Positions 3,572 to 60,032 of a stretch of 64,000 nt of DNA are shown here, piece by piece. This DNA comes from Candidatus Versatilivorator sp. (GTDB lineage: Bacteria; Acidobacteriota; Terriglobia; Versatilivoradales; Versatilivoraceae), in contig OZ242296.1 in assembly GCA_965207735.1 (NCBI GenBank), positions 3,448,782-3,512,781 of the forward strand, in the 5' to 3' direction. Within the stretch, counting starts at the first letter, position 1. Every line of letters begins with the position of its first letter. The position numbers were made by a program, and so were the translations under genes. The notes beneath the pieces were generated by a model. The model did not search any database and was not told the origin of the DNA. It saw nothing but the letters and a program-made list of their open reading frames with translations.

Positions 3572-3726
3572 AACATCGATGTACAGGATTCACAGGATTC
3601 TTCAGGAAACGGCCAGCTTCTAATGCCGGGAATCCGCAAATCCGCACCGGATCACCGCCCGAGTTGGCTTCTGGTGCAGGAAGCTCTCGTCCTGTTAATC
3701 CTGTGCATCCTGTGCATCGATGTTCA
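3572..3726. repeat. MITE-like element, family 1
   Basis: TIR-like arms around the core ATCCTGTnnATCGATGTTCA at 3572-3598 and 3698-3726, ~100 bp apart. Sits inside a larger repeat (~3395-4000) whose copy recurs at 24016-24430. Other copies lie at 8178-8328, 24298-24326 and 32509-32544. Confidence 0.55.
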
Positions 3727-3811
3727 ATGGGTAGAAAATCGTGCTAACCGAACAGGGTCCTTGTTCCCGACCGGCTATGAAGATTCCTTGTTTCACTCTA
3801 AAGGAAAACGG

Positions 3812-3932
3812 CGAACCACGAATGGACACGAAGTCATACCAGGGTAGCAGCGTTGCAGAAGCATTGTGGTGCCGCTTCTCGTTCGAGTGAGTCCACCTGC
3901 ATTCGTGTGAATTCGTGTCCATTCGTGGTTCG
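3812..3932. repeat. long perfect hairpin (21-bp stem, ~79-nt loop)
   Basis: cgaaccacgaatggacacgaa (3812-3832) is the exact reverse complement of ttcgtgtccattcgtggttcg (3912-3932). The loop contains ATTCGTGT direct repeats. Absent from the 24 kb copy of the surrounding repeat. Confidence 0.6.
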
Positions 3933-4056
3933 TCTTTATTCAGCGATCGATTGTTTTTCCTCGTAATGATCCGCATGGCAGGGCGGGAGACCGGCTAATG
4001 TCCTCCCCGGGCGCCGGTCTGCAGTCCCATGCTCAACGGTCTGAAAGAGTCCCCCA

Positions 4057-4839
4057 TTGTCTGCCCCTGCCAAGGCTCCGGAACGCTTTCTGGGACGGGT
4101 CGAATACTATCGAAAGTATCGGCCCGGCTACCCCGAGGGCCTGCTCGAATGGCTGAAGGAACTGTCGGCCCTGAAACCTTCCCACCGCGTCGCCGACATC
4201 GGCTCCGGGACGGGCCTGCTGGCGGAGCTATTCCTGCGGCAGGGCTACCCGGTGGTGGGTGTCGAGCCCAATCCCGAGATGCGGCGGACGGCTGAATCTC
4301 ACCTGAAGCGCTACCCCCGCTTCCGGACCATCGATGGGCGAGCGGAAGCCACCACCCTCGGCAGCCGGTCGGTGGATCTCATCGTCGCCGGCCAAGCCTT
4401 CCACTGGTTCCCGATCGACCGCACCCGAGAGGAGTTCCAACGCATCACCAAACCTCCGGCCTGTGCGGTCCTGGCCTGGAACCAGCGCAAGACCGAAAGC
4501 ACGGGGTTCCTGAGGGCCTACGAGAAGTTGTTGCTGCGGCACGGCACCGACTACGCCCGGGTTCGCCACCAGAACATCGGCCAGCCCCAACTGCAGGCTT
4601 TCTTCGGTCCACAAGCAATTCACAACAAGACTCTGGCCAACTCTCAGGTCTTCGACCGGGAGGGCCTCATCGGGCGCACCCTCTCCTGCTCTTTCGTGCC
4701 GTTGCCCGGACAGCCGGGCCACCGGTCCCTGATGCGGGCGCTGGACCGGATTTTTAAGGAGTGGCAGGTCGAAGGAAGGGTTACCTTCGAATACGACACC
4801 CTGGTCTATGCCGGAAGGCTACACCCCAACCCGCGGTGA
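4057..4839 (+). CDS. class I SAM-dependent methyltransferase
   Basis: Motif I VADIGSGTGLLAELF with a methyltransferase type-11-like fold. Confidence 0.8.
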   Translation: MSAPAKAPERFLGRVEYYRKYRPGYPEGLLEWLKELSALKPSHRVADIGSGTGLLAELFLRQGYPVVGVEPNPEMRRTAESHLKRYPRFRTIDGRAEATTLGSRSVDLIVAGQAFHWFPIDRTREEFQRITKPPACAVLAWNQRKTESTGFLRAYEKLLLRHGTDYARVRHQNIGQPQLQAFFGPQAIHNKTLANSQVFDREGLIGRTLSCSFVPLPGQPGHRSLMRALDRIFKEWQVEGRVTFEYDTLVYAGRLHPNPR

Positions 4840-6405: not shown

Positions 6406-7446
6406 ATGAAATTCATTTGGAGAACACGTCTGGCGCCGCTGTGTTTGCTGTCGGCTCTCGCCGCCTGCCAGGCGCCGGATGAGCCTGAAAACGCGGAACG
6501 CCGCCTGCGCAACCTGCGTCAATTGACCTTTGGAGGGGAGAATGCCGAAGCCTACTTCTCCTCCGACGGTCAGCGCCTGATATTTCAAGCGACCCGCGAC
6601 GGCGGCCAGTGCGACCAGATCTTCGTGATGGGCACCGACGGCAGCGGCATCACCCGGGTCAGCAGCGGCAAGGGCCGCACCACCTGCGCCTATTTTCTCA
6701 AGGACAGCCAGCGCTTCGTCTACGCCTCGACCCACCTGGGCAGTGAAAATTGTCCGCCTCGACCCGACTTTTCCCGGGGATACGTGTGGGCCGTCTACCC
6801 CGACTACGACATATTCCTCTCCGATTTCAACCAGGGCCTTACCCGCTTGACCGACACGCCGGGCTATGACGCCGAAGCCACCCTTTCTCCCGACGGAAAA
6901 AAGATCGTATTCACCTCCATGAGGGATGGAGACCTGGAGCTTTACTCCATGAACACCGATGGGTCGGGGGTCCAACGGCTTACCCACACCCTCGGTTACG
7001 ACGGGGGCGCCTTCTACTCCCCCGACAGTCAAAAGATCGTCTACCGCGCCTCGCACCCCACCGATGAGGCCGCCAAAACCAAGTACCGGGACCTGCTGAG
7101 CCGAAACCTGATCGAGCCCAGCCAGCTCGACATCTTCGTGATGAATGCCGACGGCAGCGACCGGGTTCAGGTGACCCGCAACGGCGCCGCCAACTTCTGT
7201 CCCTTCTTCCATCCGGACGGCCGGCGGATCATCTTTGCCTCCAACCTGGGCGACCCCAGCGGCCGCAACTTCGATCTCTACCTGATCGACATCGACGGAA
7301 CCAATCTGGAACAGGTCACCTTCGACGAGACTTTCGACGGATTCCCGATGTTCTCCCCGGACGGGAAGCAACTGGTCTTCGCCTCCAACCGCCACGGAAA
7401 AGTTCGCGGCGAGACCAACGTCTTCATCGCCGACTGGGTGGAGTAG
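6406..7446 (+). CDS. TolB-like WD40/PD40 beta-propeller repeat protein (secreted)
   Basis: Signal peptide, then repeated PD40 motifs (SPDGKKIVFTSMRDGDLELY, SPDSQKIVY, HPDGRRIIFASN, SPDGKQLVFASNR). Confidence 0.7.
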   Translation: MKFIWRTRLAPLCLLSALAACQAPDEPENAERRLRNLRQLTFGGENAEAYFSSDGQRLIFQATRDGGQCDQIFVMGTDGSGITRVSSGKGRTTCAYFLKDSQRFVYASTHLGSENCPPRPDFSRGYVWAVYPDYDIFLSDFNQGLTRLTDTPGYDAEATLSPDGKKIVFTSMRDGDLELYSMNTDGSGVQRLTHTLGYDGGAFYSPDSQKIVYRASHPTDEAAKTKYRDLLSRNLIEPSQLDIFVMNADGSDRVQVTRNGAANFCPFFHPDGRRIIFASNLGDPSGRNFDLYLIDIDGTNLEQVTFDETFDGFPMFSPDGKQLVFASNRHGKVRGETNVFIADWVE

Positions 7447-22214: not shown

Positions 22215-23975
22215 ATGCCTGACAGGAAAGATTCCGTTCCCAACCTCTCGCGCCGCCGGTTCATGCGAACCACCGTCCTGGCAGGCACGGCCCTGGGTCT
22301 TAACTCCGCGGCGCCCGGGTCCGCGGCGCCCGGGTCCGCAGCCGCCACTCCCCTGAAAAAGGCCCGGCGACCCGGAAAGTCCTTCACCGGAAAACGGCCG
22401 GAAGACTATCGGGTGGTGCTGCAGGACATCGGCGACCCCCTGCTGCGCATGCCCTGGCCACCCACCCCCGAGGGCCTGGTGGAAGGTTCGATCGGGGCGC
22501 TGAAGGACTCTGCCGTCAGCATGTACGCCTTCGGCATCAACCACGCCGGGGGCACCACCCACTGCTCCAAGCTCTACCCCATCATCGGCGAAGAACAGCC
22601 CGTCCTCAAAAGCGGCAACACGCTGCGGATGATGCAAGCCGTCCAGCGTCTGTGCGAGGCAGGACACGACCCCCTGACGCTCATGTGCGACGGCGGGCAC
22701 AAAGCCGGCCTGGACGTGTTCCTGCGCCTTCGCATGAACGATCACCACGACCGCTGGGGCGACCGGATCGGCCTGGACAAGCCTTCCCGACTTCCCAAGG
22801 ACCATCCGGCCGAGCCCTATTTCTACACGCCCAAGTGGAAACGGGAGCACCCCGAGTGGTTGATCGGAGATCGCCATGCTCCCTATCCCGACACCAGCTT
22901 CCAGTACATGCAGGCCAGCGCCGGCAACTACGCCATCGGTCCTTATCGCGACCTCATCTTCAACCTGGCTGCAGAGACCCTCACCCAATACGACTTGGAC
23001 GGGTTCGAGCTGGACTTCTTCCGGTCCCCCTTCCTCTTTCCCATCTATGAAGCCTACGTGCAGCGCCACGTGATGACCGAGCTGATCCGCCGCATCCGCC
23101 GGGTTGCCGACGAGCAGGCGGCCAAGCGAGGCCGGCCCATCTTCCTTTCCGCCCGGGTCCCGGCCACCGTCGACCTCTGCCTGCGCATCGGGATCGATCT
23201 GCCGGTCTGGTTCCAGGAGGGGTTGCTGGACATGGTGGTGGTCAGCAACGGACTCTCCCCCTTCAGCACCCCTTGGGCGGAGTTGTCCGGGTTGGGCGCC
23301 AAGCACGGCATTCCCGCTCTGGCCTGCTTTACCCATGCCCGGCCCACCCGGGAAGGCCGGGAATCGCTGCGGGCGGCCACCCACCGCGCCTTCTCCTCAG
23401 GGATCACGGGCATCCAGTTCTGGAACTACTTCTACCGCATGCCCCACTACCACCGGCCAGGAGAAAATCCCCTGGACCTGAGCTTTACCCACGATCTGGT
23501 CGATGCGGACCTGGTGAGAAACGGTCCCAAGAAATACCTGCTGGACGGCAGCCCTCACACCGGGAGCATATTGACCGGGACTTTCGGCCACGCCGAGTGG
23601 CCCGGACAGACTCCGATGATGATCGGACTTTCCACCGACGGCATCGGCCACCGGGTGGCCTTCGACATCGCCGACGACCTCGGCCGGTCCAAGCCCCAGG
23701 GGTCTCCGCGGGTCTGGATCCGCATCGTGGATCTGGCTCCCGAGGATCGATTGGAATTCGCCTGGAACGGCAAGCCGATTCAACCCGATCCCAAAGCCTT
23801 TGCCGGAATCATCCTGAAGGACAGCCACGAATTCGAGTTCGAGCTCGATCCCGCCGACGTGCGGCCCGGCGAGAACCACCTGGAGATCAAGCTGCTGGAG
23901 CGGCACGCCCGGCTCGATCCCTACGTTACCCTGGTGGACGGGCGTTTGAGCATCCCCGAATTGAAGGGCGCCTGA
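22215..23975 (+). CDS. Tat-secreted TIM-barrel glycoside hydrolase-like protein (paralog A)
   Basis: Tat motif SRRRFMRTTVLAG. Conserved blocks RMNDHHD, YDLDGFELDFFRSPF, and GIQFWNYFYR shared with the paralog at 29581-31260. C-terminal beta-sandwich tail. Confidence 0.6.
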   Translation: MPDRKDSVPNLSRRRFMRTTVLAGTALGLNSAAPGSAAPGSAAATPLKKARRPGKSFTGKRPEDYRVVLQDIGDPLLRMPWPPTPEGLVEGSIGALKDSAVSMYAFGINHAGGTTHCSKLYPIIGEEQPVLKSGNTLRMMQAVQRLCEAGHDPLTLMCDGGHKAGLDVFLRLRMNDHHDRWGDRIGLDKPSRLPKDHPAEPYFYTPKWKREHPEWLIGDRHAPYPDTSFQYMQASAGNYAIGPYRDLIFNLAAETLTQYDLDGFELDFFRSPFLFPIYEAYVQRHVMTELIRRIRRVADEQAAKRGRPIFLSARVPATVDLCLRIGIDLPVWFQEGLLDMVVVSNGLSPFSTPWAELSGLGAKHGIPALACFTHARPTREGRESLRAATHRAFSSGITGIQFWNYFYRMPHYHRPGENPLDLSFTHDLVDADLVRNGPKKYLLDGSPHTGSILTGTFGHAEWPGQTPMMIGLSTDGIGHRVAFDIADDLGRSKPQGSPRVWIRIVDLAPEDRLEFAWNGKPIQPDPKAFAGIILKDSHEFEFELDPADVRPGENHLEIKLLERHARLDPYVTLVDGRLSIPELKGA

Positions 23976-26650: not shown

Positions 26651-26706
26651 CCGGACGGCCGCCTTCGACTCTTGTGGCCCGCTGCCTCAACTATCCGAGG
26701 AATCCC

Positions 26707-28893
26707 ATGACCCCCTCAGCCAAACTCAGCCTGATCCTGCTGATCTGCCTGACCGTTGGTTCCTGCGCCCGGTCCACTGACGGCCCGACCCCAACGGGAA
26801 ACGATGGGGCGGGAAACTGGAAACGGGACCAGCGCAGCTTCGTCTACCTCTCGGAGAGACGCGCCCGCTATGCCGGGATCACCCGCACCGCCGAGGGCCG
26901 GCTGCTGACCCTGTTCACCCACCAGACGGCGCAACAGGAGCGGGACGGCTCGGGAGATCTCCAACTGGTGCGCAGGACCCGCGACGGGGATTGGTGGTTT
27001 TATCCGGAGACGATATTCGAAGGCCGCCAGGGAGAACCCCGGGCCATGGGCACCCTGACCACCCTGGAATCCGGCCGCATCATCGCCCCCTTCGCCGAGC
27101 TGAACGACGGCGCCGCCGGCAGCCGGCTGCGGATGCTGGCTTCCGAGGACCACGGCGAAACCTGGACAGCCAGTGCGCCCCTGGGGACCCACCCCCTGAC
27201 TTGGGCCATGCCCTATGGAAGACCCTTCGAGGCGGGCGACCGGGTGCTGATGCCTGTCCACGGGGCCGTCAGCCAGGAAGACCTGGCGGCCACCCGACTG
27301 CAGACGGGCCTGCTGCAATCCACCGATGGCGGCAAGAGCTGGGGGGATTGGATGCCGATTGCGGTTCCCGGCCCGGAGGCGGACCTCAGCTACGAATTTC
27401 CGGCGGTGCTGCCCCTGAAGGACGGGACCTGGCTGGCGGTCCTCACCCAGAGGCAGTTGAAGAAGCGTCCCGGGCTGCCCCTGGACATTCCGCAGACGCT
27501 GGTGCGGTCCTACAGCACCGACCAGGGCCGGAGCTGGACCCGACCCGAGCCCCTGTGCGTCGGCTCCTGGGCCAGCCTGACCCCCATGGGCGACGGCACG
27601 GTGGCCTGCTCCTTCGCCCTCTGGTCGGCCTGGGGCAGCATGGAAGTCATGTTCAGCGACGACGGCTTTCGAACCATCGGCCACCGGACCCCCTTCGTGG
27701 AACACAACTGGCTGCCGGGCTTTGGACCCAGCGGTTGGGGCGGAGGCTGGGCCCGGGATCCCATTCCCCTGCCGCCGGTGGTCCCCAACCTGCAAGGGGA
27801 CTGGAAGGCCGGCCACTATGGGTTTTCCTCCGGCTTGGCTCTGGACGAGGACCGCTTGATGCTGGTGCTGGGACAGCGGCAAAAGGGAAGCGGCTACACC
27901 GACCCTCCCCACGAAGTGAACCTTCCCATCGAGAAGGAGCGGATCGAGACCATTGTCATGAAGCGGGTGCAGAAGCCCGCGGCCCCGGCCGCCGAAACTC
28001 CCCGTGCCCATGGTGAGCCGGACGGGCAATGGTATCTGGCCGAGAGATGGCCCGAGGAGGAGTGGCGCCGGAAAGTCGGGCAGCCGCCCAACGACGTGAC
28101 CCTGGTGCTCAAGTCGGGGCGCTGGATACGCCTCACCGCCCAATACACCGTTCCCCACCAGCACGGACCCGGCAGAATCCTGGGGCGGGAGCGGGGCTAC
28201 TGGGTCTGGAAGTCGATCGACGGCCTCCACTACCGGACGCACCTGCAAGGCTCCTATTCCGATGATCAGGGGAAGACCTGGAAACAGGCCAAGGTGGAGG
28301 ACCCGGTGCCGCTGGCCGCGGCCGTGCACCTGGGGGGTGTGGCCTTTGAAGAGCCGGATGGAACCCTGGTGGCTCCCGTCTACGGCTACCTGAACCAGGA
28401 CGACATGTCGGTCTCCCTCTACGTCTCCGCCCTGGTGAGGTCCCACGACGGAGGCGCATCCTGGAGCGACTGGAGCATCATCGCCTTCGACCGGAAGGAC
28501 CGCTACACCGCCTACAGCGAGACCCAGGTCATGGCCCTCTCAGATGAGACCTGGGTGGCCTTTCTCCGCAGCGAAAACCGCAGCTACGTCCCGGTAATGA
28601 GGGCCGTCATCTCCCGAACCCTCAGCACCGACCGGGGAAGGACCTGGAGCCCGCCCCAACCCACTGCCGCGGCCGGTGTGACGGCCGGACTGCGGCTGCC
28701 GGACGGAGGCATTGCCCTGTCGGCTCAGAACACCTGCGGCTGGGGGCTGGCGGTCACCTACAACTACGGCCACACCTGGAACTACGTGCTGCCTGCCACC
28801 TACTTCTCGGCCCGGGCCGGCGTGATCGACGACAAGTCCTTCTGGCTCCACGACGCCCACGGGGGGATCGTGTCCATCTACCGCAGGCCCTGA
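26707..28893 (+). CDS. BNR/Asp-box repeat sialidase-like glycoside hydrolase (lipoprotein)
   Basis: Lipobox LTVGSC. Five Asp-box motifs (STDGGKSW, STDQGRSW, SDDQGKTW, SHDGGASW, STDRGRTW). Confidence 0.75.
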   Translation: MTPSAKLSLILLICLTVGSCARSTDGPTPTGNDGAGNWKRDQRSFVYLSERRARYAGITRTAEGRLLTLFTHQTAQQERDGSGDLQLVRRTRDGDWWFYPETIFEGRQGEPRAMGTLTTLESGRIIAPFAELNDGAAGSRLRMLASEDHGETWTASAPLGTHPLTWAMPYGRPFEAGDRVLMPVHGAVSQEDLAATRLQTGLLQSTDGGKSWGDWMPIAVPGPEADLSYEFPAVLPLKDGTWLAVLTQRQLKKRPGLPLDIPQTLVRSYSTDQGRSWTRPEPLCVGSWASLTPMGDGTVACSFALWSAWGSMEVMFSDDGFRTIGHRTPFVEHNWLPGFGPSGWGGGWARDPIPLPPVVPNLQGDWKAGHYGFSSGLALDEDRLMLVLGQRQKGSGYTDPPHEVNLPIEKERIETIVMKRVQKPAAPAAETPRAHGEPDGQWYLAERWPEEEWRRKVGQPPNDVTLVLKSGRWIRLTAQYTVPHQHGPGRILGRERGYWVWKSIDGLHYRTHLQGSYSDDQGKTWKQAKVEDPVPLAAAVHLGGVAFEEPDGTLVAPVYGYLNQDDMSVSLYVSALVRSHDGGASWSDWSIIAFDRKDRYTAYSETQVMALSDETWVAFLRSENRSYVPVMRAVISRTLSTDRGRTWSPPQPTAAAGVTAGLRLPDGGIALSAQNTCGWGLAVTYNYGHTWNYVLPATYFSARAGVIDDKSFWLHDAHGGIVSIYRRP

Positions 28894-28944
28894 GCCGGCG
28901 CTTCTCACCCGCTGCGCCGCTCGCCCCAAACCCTGGCACTGCAT

Positions 28945-29725
28945 GGAGACAGATTATTGTAATGATAGTCGCCAGGCGGCAGCCTGGAGCTCCAGTAAGC
29001 CGCCAAGGCGGCGGCAGCAGGTAGCCGTGGGCGTAAGCCCATGGAAAACTAAGCGCTTACGTTGAGCCGCGTAGGCGGCGGCAGCAATCCCCCGGCCAGG
29101 AATGCTGACTAGGTCCGCAGGCCGACCTCAGGCAGCCGGCGAGTACCTGACCGTGAGCCAGACCCCGCGCAGCCTCAGCCCGTCCCGGCGCCTGCCGCCC
29201 TTTTCAACCCGGACCTCCAGCCGATTCATCCCCTGGCGGACCCTTGCCGCTTGAACCGGACAGCGCTGGGGACGTTGTTGAATTGCTGGAATAAGTTGTA
29301 AAGAGTGCGTAGGAAACGCCATTGAATCAAAGCAATGCAGGGGCGGCTCATCGAAGTTATTCCAGTAATTCAACAACGTCCCCAATTCACGCTGCGTGGA
29401 GACAGATTATTGTAATGATAGTCGCCAGGCGGCAGCCTGGAGCTCCAGTAAGCCGCCAAGGCGGCGGCAGCAGGTAGCCGTGGGCGTAAGCCCATGGAAA
29501 ACCAAGCGCTAGCATTGAGCCGCGTAGGCGGCGGCAGCAATCCCCCGGCCAGGAATGCTGACTAGGTCCGCAGGCCGACCTCAGGCAACCGGAGGGTACT
29601 TGACCGTGAGCCAGACCCCGCGCAGCCTCAGCCCGTCCCGGCGCCTGCCGCTCTTTTCCACCCGGACCTCCAGCCGATTGATTCCCTGACGGACCGTTTC
29701 CGCTTGAACCGGGCAGCCAAGGCGC
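28945..29725. repeat. tandem duplication (~300 bp x2, period 452) of the 3' end of the 29581 gene, with a hairpin element at the junction
   Basis: Unit A 28945-29267 and unit B 29397-29725 are ~95% identical (tggagacagattattgtaatgatagtcgcc...). Each contains the sub-repeat agccgc[cg][at]aggcggcggcagca. The junction carries a 27-bp-arm hairpin, ggggacgttgttgaattgctggaataa (29268-29294) with ttattccagtaattcaacaacgtcccc (29357-29383). Confidence 0.7.
29128..29385 (-). pseudogene. chimeric ORF created by the tandem duplication (duplicate C-terminal 43 aa of hydrolase paralog B)
   Basis: The C-terminus PVQAARVRQGMNRLEVRVEKGGRRRDGLRLRGVWLTVRYSPAA copies the C-terminus of the 29581 gene. The N-terminus is read from the hairpin element. 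Confidence 0.5.
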
Positions 29726-31260
29726 TCCAGGTCTTCCGGAGCATCCTCCCCGGCGGGCTCGCCGGCTTCAAATGCCAGCTCCTCTCCATTGAGGCGGCCA
29801 GCGACCCGTTCCCCAAGGCTAAGGCCTTCCACCTCCAGCTCCAGGCGGACCCCGGCCGGCCGGCCCGAGCGCCCGGCGGCCTCCAGGTCATCGCCCACCG
29901 GCAGCTCAACCGCGGCGGCCGGCCCCGGATTGCCCCGGCTCAGCTCCAGGGGAAGCTGGCCCGGGTGGCTGGCGATGGCGTAGGGTCCGATGTCCTGGAT
30001 GTAGTCCACCCCGAAGCGCTTGTCCCGAAACTGCAGGCTTGAGGCCGACTGAATATCCTCCAGAAGCCCGTAGGCATCGGGTACCGGCCGGCCGTAGGCC
30101 AGCATGGGCACCTGGCGGTAGTGGTAGTTCCAGAGATAGATCCCGTCGGCTCCGGCCGAGAAGATATTGGAGGCCGCACCCCGCATGGTCTCATCCGAAC
30201 CAAACACCTTCAGGCCGCAGTTGATGCAAGGGTAGACGGGAACCTCGTGGCGGTGCCCCAGCGTCACCAGCTCCCGGGCCGGATTGGTGAAGACCGTGTA
30301 TCCCCCGCCGATCAGCATCCGGTCCACCCAACCCTGCTTGAGCCAGGTCTCCACATCCAGACCGATGCCATTGCAGGCCGCCAGGGTCCCCGGAACCCTG
30401 ACGCCCAGAAGCAGGGGCCTTTGACGGGATTCCGACACCTTCCTCACAATCCGGTGAGCCCCCTGGATCAGGTTGTTCATCAGAGCCGCTCCCGCTTCCT
30501 CCTCCCCGGGCTTGAAGTACCAGGGCATGCGGAAGAAGTTCAGGTCCACCCCGTCCAGGTCGTAGTTCTCGGCGGTGTGACGGACCCACCACAGCCGGTC
30601 CTCCCGCACTTCCGGTATGGCGAAATTCAGGCCGGACCACCTGGCCGCCTCCAGGGTGGTGAAGGGGCTTCCCTTCTGGCTCTGCTCTCCCAGCAGCCAC
30701 TCCGGATGGGCCACCTTCGGGGGATAGACCAGCTTCCCTTCAGGCATCCCGAAGGCATCGTGGGTGTCGTTCATGCGGATCGACCCGAAGACCTCCAGTC
30801 CGTGGCGGTGGATGCCCTCGGCCATGACGGGCGTCGGATCGTGGATGGCCTCATTGAGCGGCCGGTCCTGCTGCTGGGTCTGCCAGTAGCGGGTCTGTCC
30901 GGGACCCTGGGCGATGCCCCACATGATGCACCAGGCGATGCTGTCCACCGGCGTCCCCAGGATGGGCTCGAGGCGCAGCCCCAGAAAAGCCTCGGCTCCC
31001 TTGGCCGCCTCGGGGTCGTAGACCAGGTCCCCGTCGTCATCCAGGATCAGCCGCCGCCCGCGTTCCACCGCCCTGCGCCGCGCCTGCTCGAGCCCCTCCT
31101 GCCTCCCCGCGCAGCCCGGCAGTCCGGCCAGCCAGGAGCCTCCCGCCAGGGCCCCGGCCGTCCCCAGGAAACGCCGGCGAGTCAAAGCCGCCGGCTTCCG
31201 CCCTTTTACGATTCCGTCATCGATCCTCATGGGTCCTCCGGTATCCAGCATGTATCGCAT
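29581..31260 (-). CDS. Tat-secreted TIM-barrel glycoside hydrolase-like protein (paralog B), with N-terminus fused to a vapC start remnant
   Basis: Tat motif TRRRFLGTAGALAG, then RMNDTHD, YDLDGVDLNFFRMPWYF, and GIYLWNYHYR. In-frame upstream codons MRYMLDTGGP resemble a VapC N-terminus (MLDTN..). That ATG overlaps the vapB stop by 1 nt. An alternative start is MRIDDG at 31230. Confidence 0.6.
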   Translation of the reverse strand: MRYMLDTGGPMRIDDGIVKGRKPAALTRRRFLGTAGALAGGSWLAGLPGCAGRQEGLEQARRRAVERGRRLILDDDGDLVYDPEAAKGAEAFLGLRLEPILGTPVDSIAWCIMWGIAQGPGQTRYWQTQQQDRPLNEAIHDPTPVMAEGIHRHGLEVFGSIRMNDTHDAFGMPEGKLVYPPKVAHPEWLLGEQSQKGSPFTTLEAARWSGLNFAIPEVREDRLWWVRHTAENYDLDGVDLNFFRMPWYFKPGEEEAGAALMNNLIQGAHRIVRKVSESRQRPLLLGVRVPGTLAACNGIGLDVETWLKQGWVDRMLIGGGYTVFTNPARELVTLGHRHEVPVYPCINCGLKVFGSDETMRGAASNIFSAGADGIYLWNYHYRQVPMLAYGRPVPDAYGLLEDIQSASSLQFRDKRFGVDYIQDIGPYAIASHPGQLPLELSRGNPGPAAAVELPVGDDLEAAGRSGRPAGVRLELEVEGLSLGERVAGRLNGEELAFEAGEPAGEDAPEDLERLGCPVQAETVRQGINRLEVRVEKSGRRRDGLRLRGVWLTVKYPPVA

Positions 31261-31499
31261 CAAAACGCGACTCGGCAGCCATCCGTCAACTCGGGACGGT
31301 CGGCCATGAAATCCTCCCCCACGGGAGGCGCTTCCTCGGCATAGGATGTCCACGTCTTGCGAAGCGGCGCAATGACCAATGCCTCACCTTCCTTGCGGAT
31401 TATCACCTCATCCACACCCTCGAACCGAAACGCTTTCGGAATTCGAACGGCCTGACTGCGACCGTTGAAAAACAGCTTGGCGGTAGCTTGCATAACCAC
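31260..31499 (-). CDS. vapB: VapB-type antitoxin (AbrB/SpoVT fold), orphan
   Basis: AKLFFNGRSQAVRIPKAFRF ... DFMADRPE matches VapB/MvpA-type antitoxins end to end. No intact vapC follows. Confidence 0.7.
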   Translation of the reverse strand: MVMQATAKLFFNGRSQAVRIPKAFRFEGVDEVIIRKEGEALVIAPLRKTWTSYAEEAPPVGEDFMADRPELTDGCRVAF

Positions 31500-31759: not shown

Positions 31760-32029
31760 ATGAAAAAAAACAAGGACACCTCATCCAGGAAAGGCGGATT
31801 GGATCTTGTGAGGGTCCGGCGGGCAGGGCAGATTACGCTGTCCCGCAAGGTGCGGGAAGCCATGAATCTGGGAGAGGGCGACTACTTGGAACCCCGGTTC
31901 ACGGAAGGCGGTGTCTTGCTGCGGCCAGTGAGTGTACGCTCTCGGGAACCGTCGGCGGCTCAGGAAGCGGAGATTTTGGATGTAGTGAACCAGGAACGCC
32001 GGAAGTATGCCAAAGAGCGCCGTCATTGA
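31760..32029 (+). CDS. AbrB/MazE-family antitoxin
   Basis: Small basic protein with a SpoVT/AbrB-like core (VRVRRAGQITLSRKVREAMNLGEGDYL). Overlaps the downstream PIN gene by 23 nt. Confidence 0.55.
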   Translation: MKKNKDTSSRKGGLDLVRVRRAGQITLSRKVREAMNLGEGDYLEPRFTEGGVLLRPVSVRSREPSAAQEAEILDVVNQERRKYAKERRH

Positions 32030-32438
32030 TACCTCCGTTTTGGTGAGTGCCTTTCTGTTTCGGGAGAGTGTGCCTGGACGGGTCATTGAACTTGCTGAGC
32101 GGAACGTTTACACCCTTTATCTTTCCCCGATTTTGATGGAAGAAGTGACGCGGTCACTTCACCATCCGCGCCTGCAAAAGGCCTATGGGTATGCGGACGC
32201 GGATGTGCGAGTCTGGTGTCACACTTTGAAGACAATTGGGACGGTGTGGAAAAAGGCATTGCCGGACATTGGGTCTGTGTGTCGTGATCCTGATGATGAA
32301 CATGTGATCGCGTGCGCGCATGTCGTGGGTGCGTCGTGGATAGTAACAGGCGATCATGACTTGCTTGACCTTGAGGGGTATAAGGGAGTGCGAATCGTGT
32401 CTGCCCGAACGTTCCTGGAAGAAATGGCGGTTCTGTAG
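32007..32438 (+). CDS. PIN-domain toxin (VapC-like)
   Basis: AVIDTSVLVSAF (acidic residue D7), a conserved E in MEEVTR, and distal acidic residues DPDDEHVIACA...TGDHDL. Confidence 0.75.
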   Translation: MPKSAVIDTSVLVSAFLFRESVPGRVIELAERNVYTLYLSPILMEEVTRSLHHPRLQKAYGYADADVRVWCHTLKTIGTVWKKALPDIGSVCRDPDDEHVIACAHVVGASWIVTGDHDLLDLEGYKGVRIVSARTFLEEMAVL

Positions 32439-32763: not shown

Positions 32764-35928
<3,165 letters not shown>

Positions 35929-59778: not shown

Positions 59779-60032
59779 GGTCCCTCCTCCTCGAACTCCC
59801 CCTGACGGGCAGAACCCGGATCTTTCCTTTAAGCGCATACCCGATGTTAACCGAAAACTCCCCGGAAGTTAACCCACCCGTGTCAGAGGGGGTGTACGAC
59901 CCATTGCGGGGAGAGGAGTGTAGCGCATTCCGGCAGCCGTGTGCCAGGCGTCGGTTGCCCCCCACCGCTACATCAGTGCTGCACGACGAATTTTACACAA
60001 GGCTCATGGTTTACACGCTGCTGACGGAGGAC

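Follow-up and report, generated by a model that had tools for sequence, protein, structure and literature searches.

The 3' end of a gene and the sequence downstream of it are duplicated in tandem in the window (the whole 64,000-nt stretch of DNA analysed here), and a mobile hairpin lies exactly at the junction of the two copies, as an earlier note on this DNA had described. The hairpin is a REPIN-like element. We consider it probable that the element was resident at the locus when its alpha flank was joined to the gene 137 nt before the stop codon, and that the join was made between two alleles. With this locus, a REPIN/RAYT-like system is on record for an uncultured lineage of Acidobacteria known mainly from MAGs; a literature search by the genus name Versatilivorator found no paper.

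Repeat finding and blastn delimited two direct repeats of 326 nt each, at 28939-29264 and 29392-29717, with 94.8% identity, an E value of 2e-147 and a period of 453. The repeat had been placed before at 28945-29267 and 29397-29725 with a period of 452, so that its existence stands while its ends were a few bases off. Each unit joins the 3'-terminal 137 nt of the gene at 29581-31230(-), rather than the ~110 nt of coding sequence assigned earlier, to 189 nt of non-coding sequence (E1), which is rich in GC palindromes as had been noticed. The order of the array is gene-[3' end + E1]-REPIN-[3' end + E1]-BNR, corresponding to 1.7 units with a single REPIN, and the rearranged part lies in the gap between the convergent stop codons of the hydrolase-like gene and the BNR gene (Table 1). 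Part of the repeated flank is coding sequence; the functional gene is intact. The two E1 copies are 97.4% identical, and the tail of E1-A runs directly into the native spacer TGCCAGGGTTTGGGG..., the same form as in the REPIN-free locus L115 of a relative.

Table 1. Features of the rearranged locus and its two neighbouring genes (window coordinates).
Feature	Position	Strand	Remarks
BNR/sialidase-like gene	26674-28893	+	Convergent neighbour
E1-A, non-coding part of unit A	28939-29127	-	GC-palindrome-rich; follows the gene's stop codon in this lineage
Acido-Lenti-1-like motif	28998-29044	-	Sub-threshold; in E1-A, with a twin in E1-B at 29451-29497(-)
Orphan copy A, last 137 nt of the gene	29128-29264	-	45 codons + stop; reading frame intact
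Chimeric ORF, 85 aa	29128-29385	-	N-terminal ~41 residues are REPIN translation; C-terminus is orphan copy A
REPIN-like element	29262-29391	no strand	Alpha flank + arm + spacer + arm + beta flank
REPIN alpha flank AGCGCT	29262-29267		Overlaps the end of orphan copy A through microhomology (C)AGC / GCTG
REPIN arms	29268-29297 and 29354-29383		56-nt spacer between them (29298-29353)
REPIN beta flank AATTCACG	29384-29391		
E1-B, non-coding part of unit B	29392-29580	-	Follows immediately after the stop codon of the functional gene
Functional gene, 549 aa	29581-31230	-	Starts MRIDDG; intact; 3'-terminal 137 nt (29581-29717) form unit B's coding part

The element between the units had been described as 116 bp long with near-perfect arms of 27 bp. 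The inverted repeat was confirmed, but its arms are longer (30-31 nt, 94% complementary): taken as 29267-29297 and 29354-29384, they pair at 29 of 31 positions around the spacer. Folded as single-stranded DNA, it forms a single long hairpin of -34.6 kcal/mol (z = -8.7), and none of 200 shuffled sequences was as stable. In the whole 64-kb window, no match to an Rfam family attained the gathering score. Besides the Acido-Lenti-1-like motif, the locus matched only MIR5998, at 38.7 bits on one strand and 34.6 bits on the other (gathering score 180); the long hairpin alone explains these matches.

Further copies of the hairpin, for which a search had been advised, proved abundant. A species-representative genome collection was scanned in 8-kb blocks with an exact pattern of 20 specified arm bases. 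Among the matches listed, the pattern was found in more than 108 blocks, nearly all from Ca. Versatilivorator, Versatilivoraceae, Terriglobia and Acidobacteria MAGs, and at least 25 of the listed blocks belong to the closest complete genome, OX638355.1. The fetched blocks contained 246 arms and ~75 inverted doublets up to 300 bp across. The size distribution of the doublets has a sharp mode at 116 nt (35 copies), which is the size of the window element. The flanks of the family are conserved and asymmetric, with ...GTGCAGCGCT on the alpha side and TAYTCNCG on the beta side. No short target-site duplication was found at the window copy or at ~35 other copies.

REPINs were defined by Bertels and Rainey in 2011 as abundant, hairpin-forming inverted doublets of a repeat that also flanks a Y1 transposase gene (PMC3116915). 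The window family has these properties: the element is an inverted doublet of ~116 nt with a less conserved spacer and a strong single-stranded hairpin, it occurs in many copies per genome with doublets prevailing over singlets (singlet:doublet ratio ~1.3), and in sister genomes the same arms flank a Y1 HUH gene of the IS200/RAYT-like kind. Copy number was judged in the sister genomes, as the 64-kb window holds one copy. For comparison, the REPs of Pseudomonas REPINs are spaced by 71 and 110 bp (PMC3116915). Unlike a classical REP, the 30-nt arm (GGGGACGTTGTTGAATTACTGGAATAACTT) is AT-rich and, as read from its sequence, lacks an internal palindrome, and the arms act more like terminal inverted repeats than like classical REPs. 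The conserved asymmetric flanks AGCGCTGCAC and CGTGAATA also distinguish the family from classical REPINs, and the host is an acidobacterium rather than a proteobacterium. We call the 116-nt hairpin REPIN-like: it is a non-autonomous element of the REPIN type, abundant in sponge-associated Acidobacteria of the Ca. Versatilivorator type, whose genomes contain dozens of copies or more.

Other classes of element were considered for the hairpin and rejected. A MITE of a DDE transposase would leave a target-site duplication, and no duplication of 2-14 bp was found; the flanking repeat is 326 bp long. An integron attC site or cassette array was suggested by arms lying in direct orientation at cassette-like spacing in some loci, and was set aside since the arms bound a Y1 transposase gene. 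A phase-variable invertible promoter was rejected because 28700-29900 contains nothing that resembles a promoter or a terminator. In sister genomes, some of the REPINs lie within a second, outer miniature element whose terminal inverted repeats (GAGCCTTTTGCAAAATTC) are 18 nt long (L087 at ~4058-4243, with similar copies in L072, L037, L045 and L018). This outer element shows possible target duplications of 3-4 bp (TATA, CCTT), and one solo match to its terminal repeat, with 2 mismatches, was seen in the window at 59988-60005.

Inverted pairs of the same arm, 1340-1355 bp apart, enclose an ORF of 321 aa in three sister loci (L033 2724-4078, L071 5688-7031, L038 5342-6681). The arm-bounded elements as a whole span ~1.06-1.35 kb, including L092 4834-5894; the ends were verified for the three elements of ~1.35 kb, and they extend beyond the arms by ...AATA/TATT.... 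The 321-aa protein matches Pfam Y1_Tnp (PF01797) with 30.3 bits against a cut-off of 23, and the NCBIfam model NF047646 for REP-associated tyrosine transposases over positions 2-146 of 146 (E 1.9e-17). Its score with the latter, 63.5 bits, is under the equivalog cut-off of 80 bits, which makes the protein a relative and not an equivalog. The HUH motif NHAHLL and the tyrosine motif RYIHLNP can be read in its sequence, and they are accompanied by a C-terminal helix-turn-helix region. A PDB sequence search with the 321-aa protein gave no match, and no RAYT-like gene was found in the 64-kb window.

The genome OZ240232.1 carries at least two full-length and several partial copies of the transposase gene (L071, L092, L008, L009, L091); among the sampled blocks, one full copy was found in OX638355.1 and one in OZ253547.1. 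RAYTs are typically single-copy, housekeeping-like genes (PMC5581495). The present gene, being multi-copy in at least one genome, is IS-like and unlike a typical RAYT in this respect, and its helix-turn-helix region and its score below the NCBIfam cut-off set it further apart from RAYTs.

The non-coding part of the units is itself repetitive. The core of E1 (~28969-29089) is a dispersed repeat in the sister genomes and contains, on the gene strand, a 46-nt match to Acido-Lenti-1 (Rfam RF01687). The E1 copies of the window score 30.1 bits (E 1.6e-4), below the gathering score of 37, whereas related copies of the E1 core in sister loci exceed it with 42-52 bits. In ~89 kb of sister-genome sequence, Acido-Lenti-1 was over its gathering score at 12 sites, distributed over L014, L015, L039, L046, L051, L100, L102 and L116. 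Since there are multiple passing sites, with two to three copies at some loci, Acido-Lenti-1 behaves in these genomes like a dispersed repeat module and not like a single-copy sRNA gene. A structured RNA in the 3' UTR was considered for E1 and rejected, as its fold is barely better than those of shuffled sequences (z = -2.1). In one sister block that also holds a REPIN and a copy of the E1 core, a group II intron domain D1-D4 was seen (L090 1978-2120, 75.6 bits against a gathering score of 49). The gap between the convergent genes resembles BIMEs and enterobacterial REP clusters in being a mosaic of short palindromic repeat types with strain-variable content. It differs from BIMEs in that the sequences are unrelated and that the mosaic also holds a duplicated coding piece.

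Eleven orthologous loci were retrieved through the close homologues of the gene (L001, L002, L111-L116 and L118-L120). The duplication is absent from all 11, so that the comparison with sister strains proposed in the earlier note supports a rearrangement specific to the lineage of the window. Only 36-64 bp separate the two stop codons in six of the loci (L002, L113, L114, L118, L119, L120). L115 has the order gene-E1-BNR without a REPIN, L001, on a complete chromosome of 5.1 Mb, has a shortened E1 and a REPIN, and L112 has E1 followed by unrelated DNA. In L116 the gap is an 830-bp mosaic of other repeats, and L111, a short-read contig, ends inside E1. Because its content differs from strain to strain, the gap is regarded as a strain-variable sink for repeats. 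The spacer of the window REPIN is identical to that of the REPIN at the same locus in L001 at 56 of 56 positions, while the next nearest copy has 8 mismatches, indicating that the REPIN was resident here before the rearrangement. The series of loci, from empty through E1 and E1 + REPIN to the duplication, gives a view of how such elements remodel intergenic gaps and copy pieces of coding sequence.

The two copies of the coding part differ at 12 of 137 nt (91.2% identity). At 10 of the 12 positions both states segregate among ten other alleles, and at all 10 of these copy B has the state of L111. The orphan copy A is nearest to the L112 allele (95.6%) and carries two private changes, one of them beside the junction. 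This pattern does not agree with the recent and simple in-situ duplication that had been proposed for the locus. In E1, the copies are identical over stretches of 67 and ~107 nt in which L115 differs from both, and their five differences are clustered and again match another allele. The flanks were compared in the same manner: on the BNR side the sequence is 96-98% identical to L001, whereas on the gene side it is 91-96% identical to L001 and 98% to L111, so that the strain affinity of the flanks shifts near the junction. Taken together, the 12 coding differences with their shared polymorphisms and the identical stretches of E1 suggest that allelic recombination accompanied the event or later overwrote one of the copies. 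A template/variable pair of a diversity-generating retroelement was also considered and rejected, since at none of the 12 coding differences is the base of the orphan copy an A. The substitutions are of several types (G>A 3, T>C 2, G>C 2, C>T 2, others), and the repeat extends 189 nt past the stop codon.

The two junctions were then read in the orientation of the gene. The consensus of the alpha flank, CCCC-AGCGCTGCAC, has GCTGC in common with the sequence of the gene, TTGGCTGCCCGG; the window junction is CCCC-AGCGCTGTCCGG. The comparison places the crossover within GCTG(C), with a private T at the join. At the other junction, the E1 tail ...CACGCAG abuts a complete beta flank (CGTGAATT). Neither junction was found in any other assembly examined. 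An exact search of JGI metagenome contigs gave 0 matches for each of them, and that collection appears to be without close relatives; the closest homologues of the gene (P0001-P0027, with 85-93% identity) were found in ENA, NCBI or Logan.

From the anatomy of the locus, the family to which the hairpin belongs, the allele pattern and the microhomology, together with the lack of the duplication in relatives, we infer the following course of events. The intergenic gap would first have gained the E1 repeat and then the REPIN. A non-homologous join would then have connected the alpha flank of the REPIN (AGCGCTGC...) to GCTGCCCGG, which lies 137 nt ahead of the gene's stop codon, most likely by microhomology-mediated illegitimate recombination or template switching, possibly with a stalled or nicked hairpin as its starting point. 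As partner molecule, an allele without the REPIN, contributed by a co-resident strain, is most likely. If so, the single REPIN, the differing allele of the orphan copy and the change in flank affinity would all be explained by one event. On its own, a microhomology of 4-5 nt says little about the mechanism of the join. The role of the element may have been passive, supplying the microhomology and possibly a nick. The hairpin/MITE mediation proposed earlier thus holds as far as a mobile element lies at the junction; this element has been refined to a REPIN-like doublet whose arms bound a Y1 gene, and a target duplication of the transposition type is absent.

The product resembles that of homology-facilitated illegitimate recombination and of microhomology-mediated tandem duplication, in that one junction has a microhomology of 4-6 nt, the other side is continuous with homologous sequence, and the surroundings of the event are allelic mosaics. 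The mechanism is here deduced from the product alone. Tandem repeats of REPINs with their flanks have already been described in Pseudomonas as a higher-order arrangement (PMC3116915), and the present rearrangement is of that kind.

The identical stretches of E1, at which L115 differs from both copies, fit about equally well with a duplication in situ followed by a recombination tract. By this account, slippage or template switching between sister chromatids would have produced X-REPIN-X-REPIN or copied the REPIN into the junction, after which the second REPIN was lost and an L111-like tract overwrote the 3' end of the gene. All differences between the copies indeed lie in one contiguous part, from the 3' end of the gene to about position 92 of E1, and excision of REPINs has been documented (PMC3116915). 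This course requires two or three events instead of one, however, and E1-A ends in a clean site that is free of a REPIN and has the same form as L115. We thus regard an origin in situ as possible but rather unlikely, and prefer the join between a REPIN-bearing and a REPIN-free allele.

It might also be argued that the haplotypes of two co-occurring strains were concatenated through the repeat during assembly, and that the duplication is present on no real chromosome. The copies are different alleles of the population, the flank affinity changes near the junction, the junction has been seen in no independent assembly, and the short-read assembly L111 breaks inside E1, all of which speak for such an error. 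However, both junctions are novel and joined at only 4-6 shared nt, and graph or overlap assemblers do not invent joins of this type. Moreover, comparable REP-associated tandem units are present in complete sister chromosomes assembled from long reads, in which the units abut REP arms (L015, 638-nt units at 97-98%; L039, 420 nt; L097; L099, ~493-nt units). An artefact is therefore very unlikely.

The sister arrays (L015 5439-7993, L099 4908-6296 and L039 3482-4384) consist of non-coding units of 450-640 nt with several kinds of GC-rich hairpins, and each unit is terminated by a REP arm or a degenerate hairpin. L015 also has a duplicated segment of 503 bp, at 3675-4177 and 6786-7288.

HUH transposases work via circular single-stranded intermediates, as is established for IS200/IS605. 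Since the transposase of the family is of the HUH type, movement of the 453-nt unit (gene 3' end + E1 + REPIN) by the Y1 transposase through a cryptic end in the gene, either as an aberrant or one-ended transposition or as a single crossover of a small circle, was weighed as well. X-REPIN-X with mosaic alleles is exactly what would result if a circle (X + REPIN) recombined with a chromosomal X by a single crossover; yet the data lend no support to such circles, no conserved cleavage motif beyond GCTG is common to the site in the gene and the REPIN ends, and REPIN flanks elsewhere have captured no host DNA, which makes this origin highly improbable.

When the asymmetric flanks and the adjacent genes are taken as reference, the spacer that the window shares with L001 (29298-29353 against 7777-7832 of L001, OX638355.1) has opposite orientations in the two strains, one being the reverse complement of the other. 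This suggests that the loop of the hairpin was inverted in place between the 30-nt arms. Over the whole family, the spacer lies in one orientation in 16 copies and in the other in 13, and by eye its orientation appears mostly constant inside subfamilies of spacer sequence. It is conceivable, though doubtful, that REPIN hairpins in these symbiont genomes are active hotspots of rearrangement, at which nicking by the Y1 transposase or fork stalling drives template switching, flips the loop and duplicates adjacent gene ends. If this were true, they would repeatedly give rise to orphan gene 3' ends and chimeric ORFs, and REPIN/RAYT systems would contribute mechanistically to genome plasticity, a role not demonstrated for them before.

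The functional gene encodes 549 aa, the same length as in all close homologues, and its orthologues are 85-93% identical. A twin-arginine-type N-terminus, RRRFLGTAG, can be read from the sequence. The gene had been named a paralog-B hydrolase. The paralogy is supported by a 586-aa ORF at 22215-23975 with 31% identity, but the hydrolase assignment has weak support, as the sole family signal is a sub-threshold match to GHL10 (15.5 bits, with a cut-off of 27.9; E 0.0098).

The 85-aa ORF is present at the position reported before and is, as was proposed, a by-product; its C-terminal ~44 residues copy the C-terminus of the functional gene. A search of the chimeric protein against 5.8 billion proteins returned no full-length match and only two C-terminal fragments of the hydrolase-like family. 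The reading GTLLNYWNN turns up wherever a REPIN arm is translated. We judge that the 85-aa ORF and the orphan 3' end are inert by-products, and neither should be annotated as a gene. The locus is a likely break point in short-read assemblies, and it indicates no new function and no new class of system.

Upstream of the functional gene, a MazE-type antitoxin ORF without a PIN partner lies at 31260-31499(-), followed by a separate pair of MazE-like and PIN genes at 31760-32438(+) and the R subunit of a type I restriction system at 32764-35928(-). The PIN partner of the MazE-type ORF is present in L001, L111, L113, L116 and L120, and absent here and from L002, L112, L114, L115 and L118, indicating that the toxin-antitoxin content at this locus is variable among strains.
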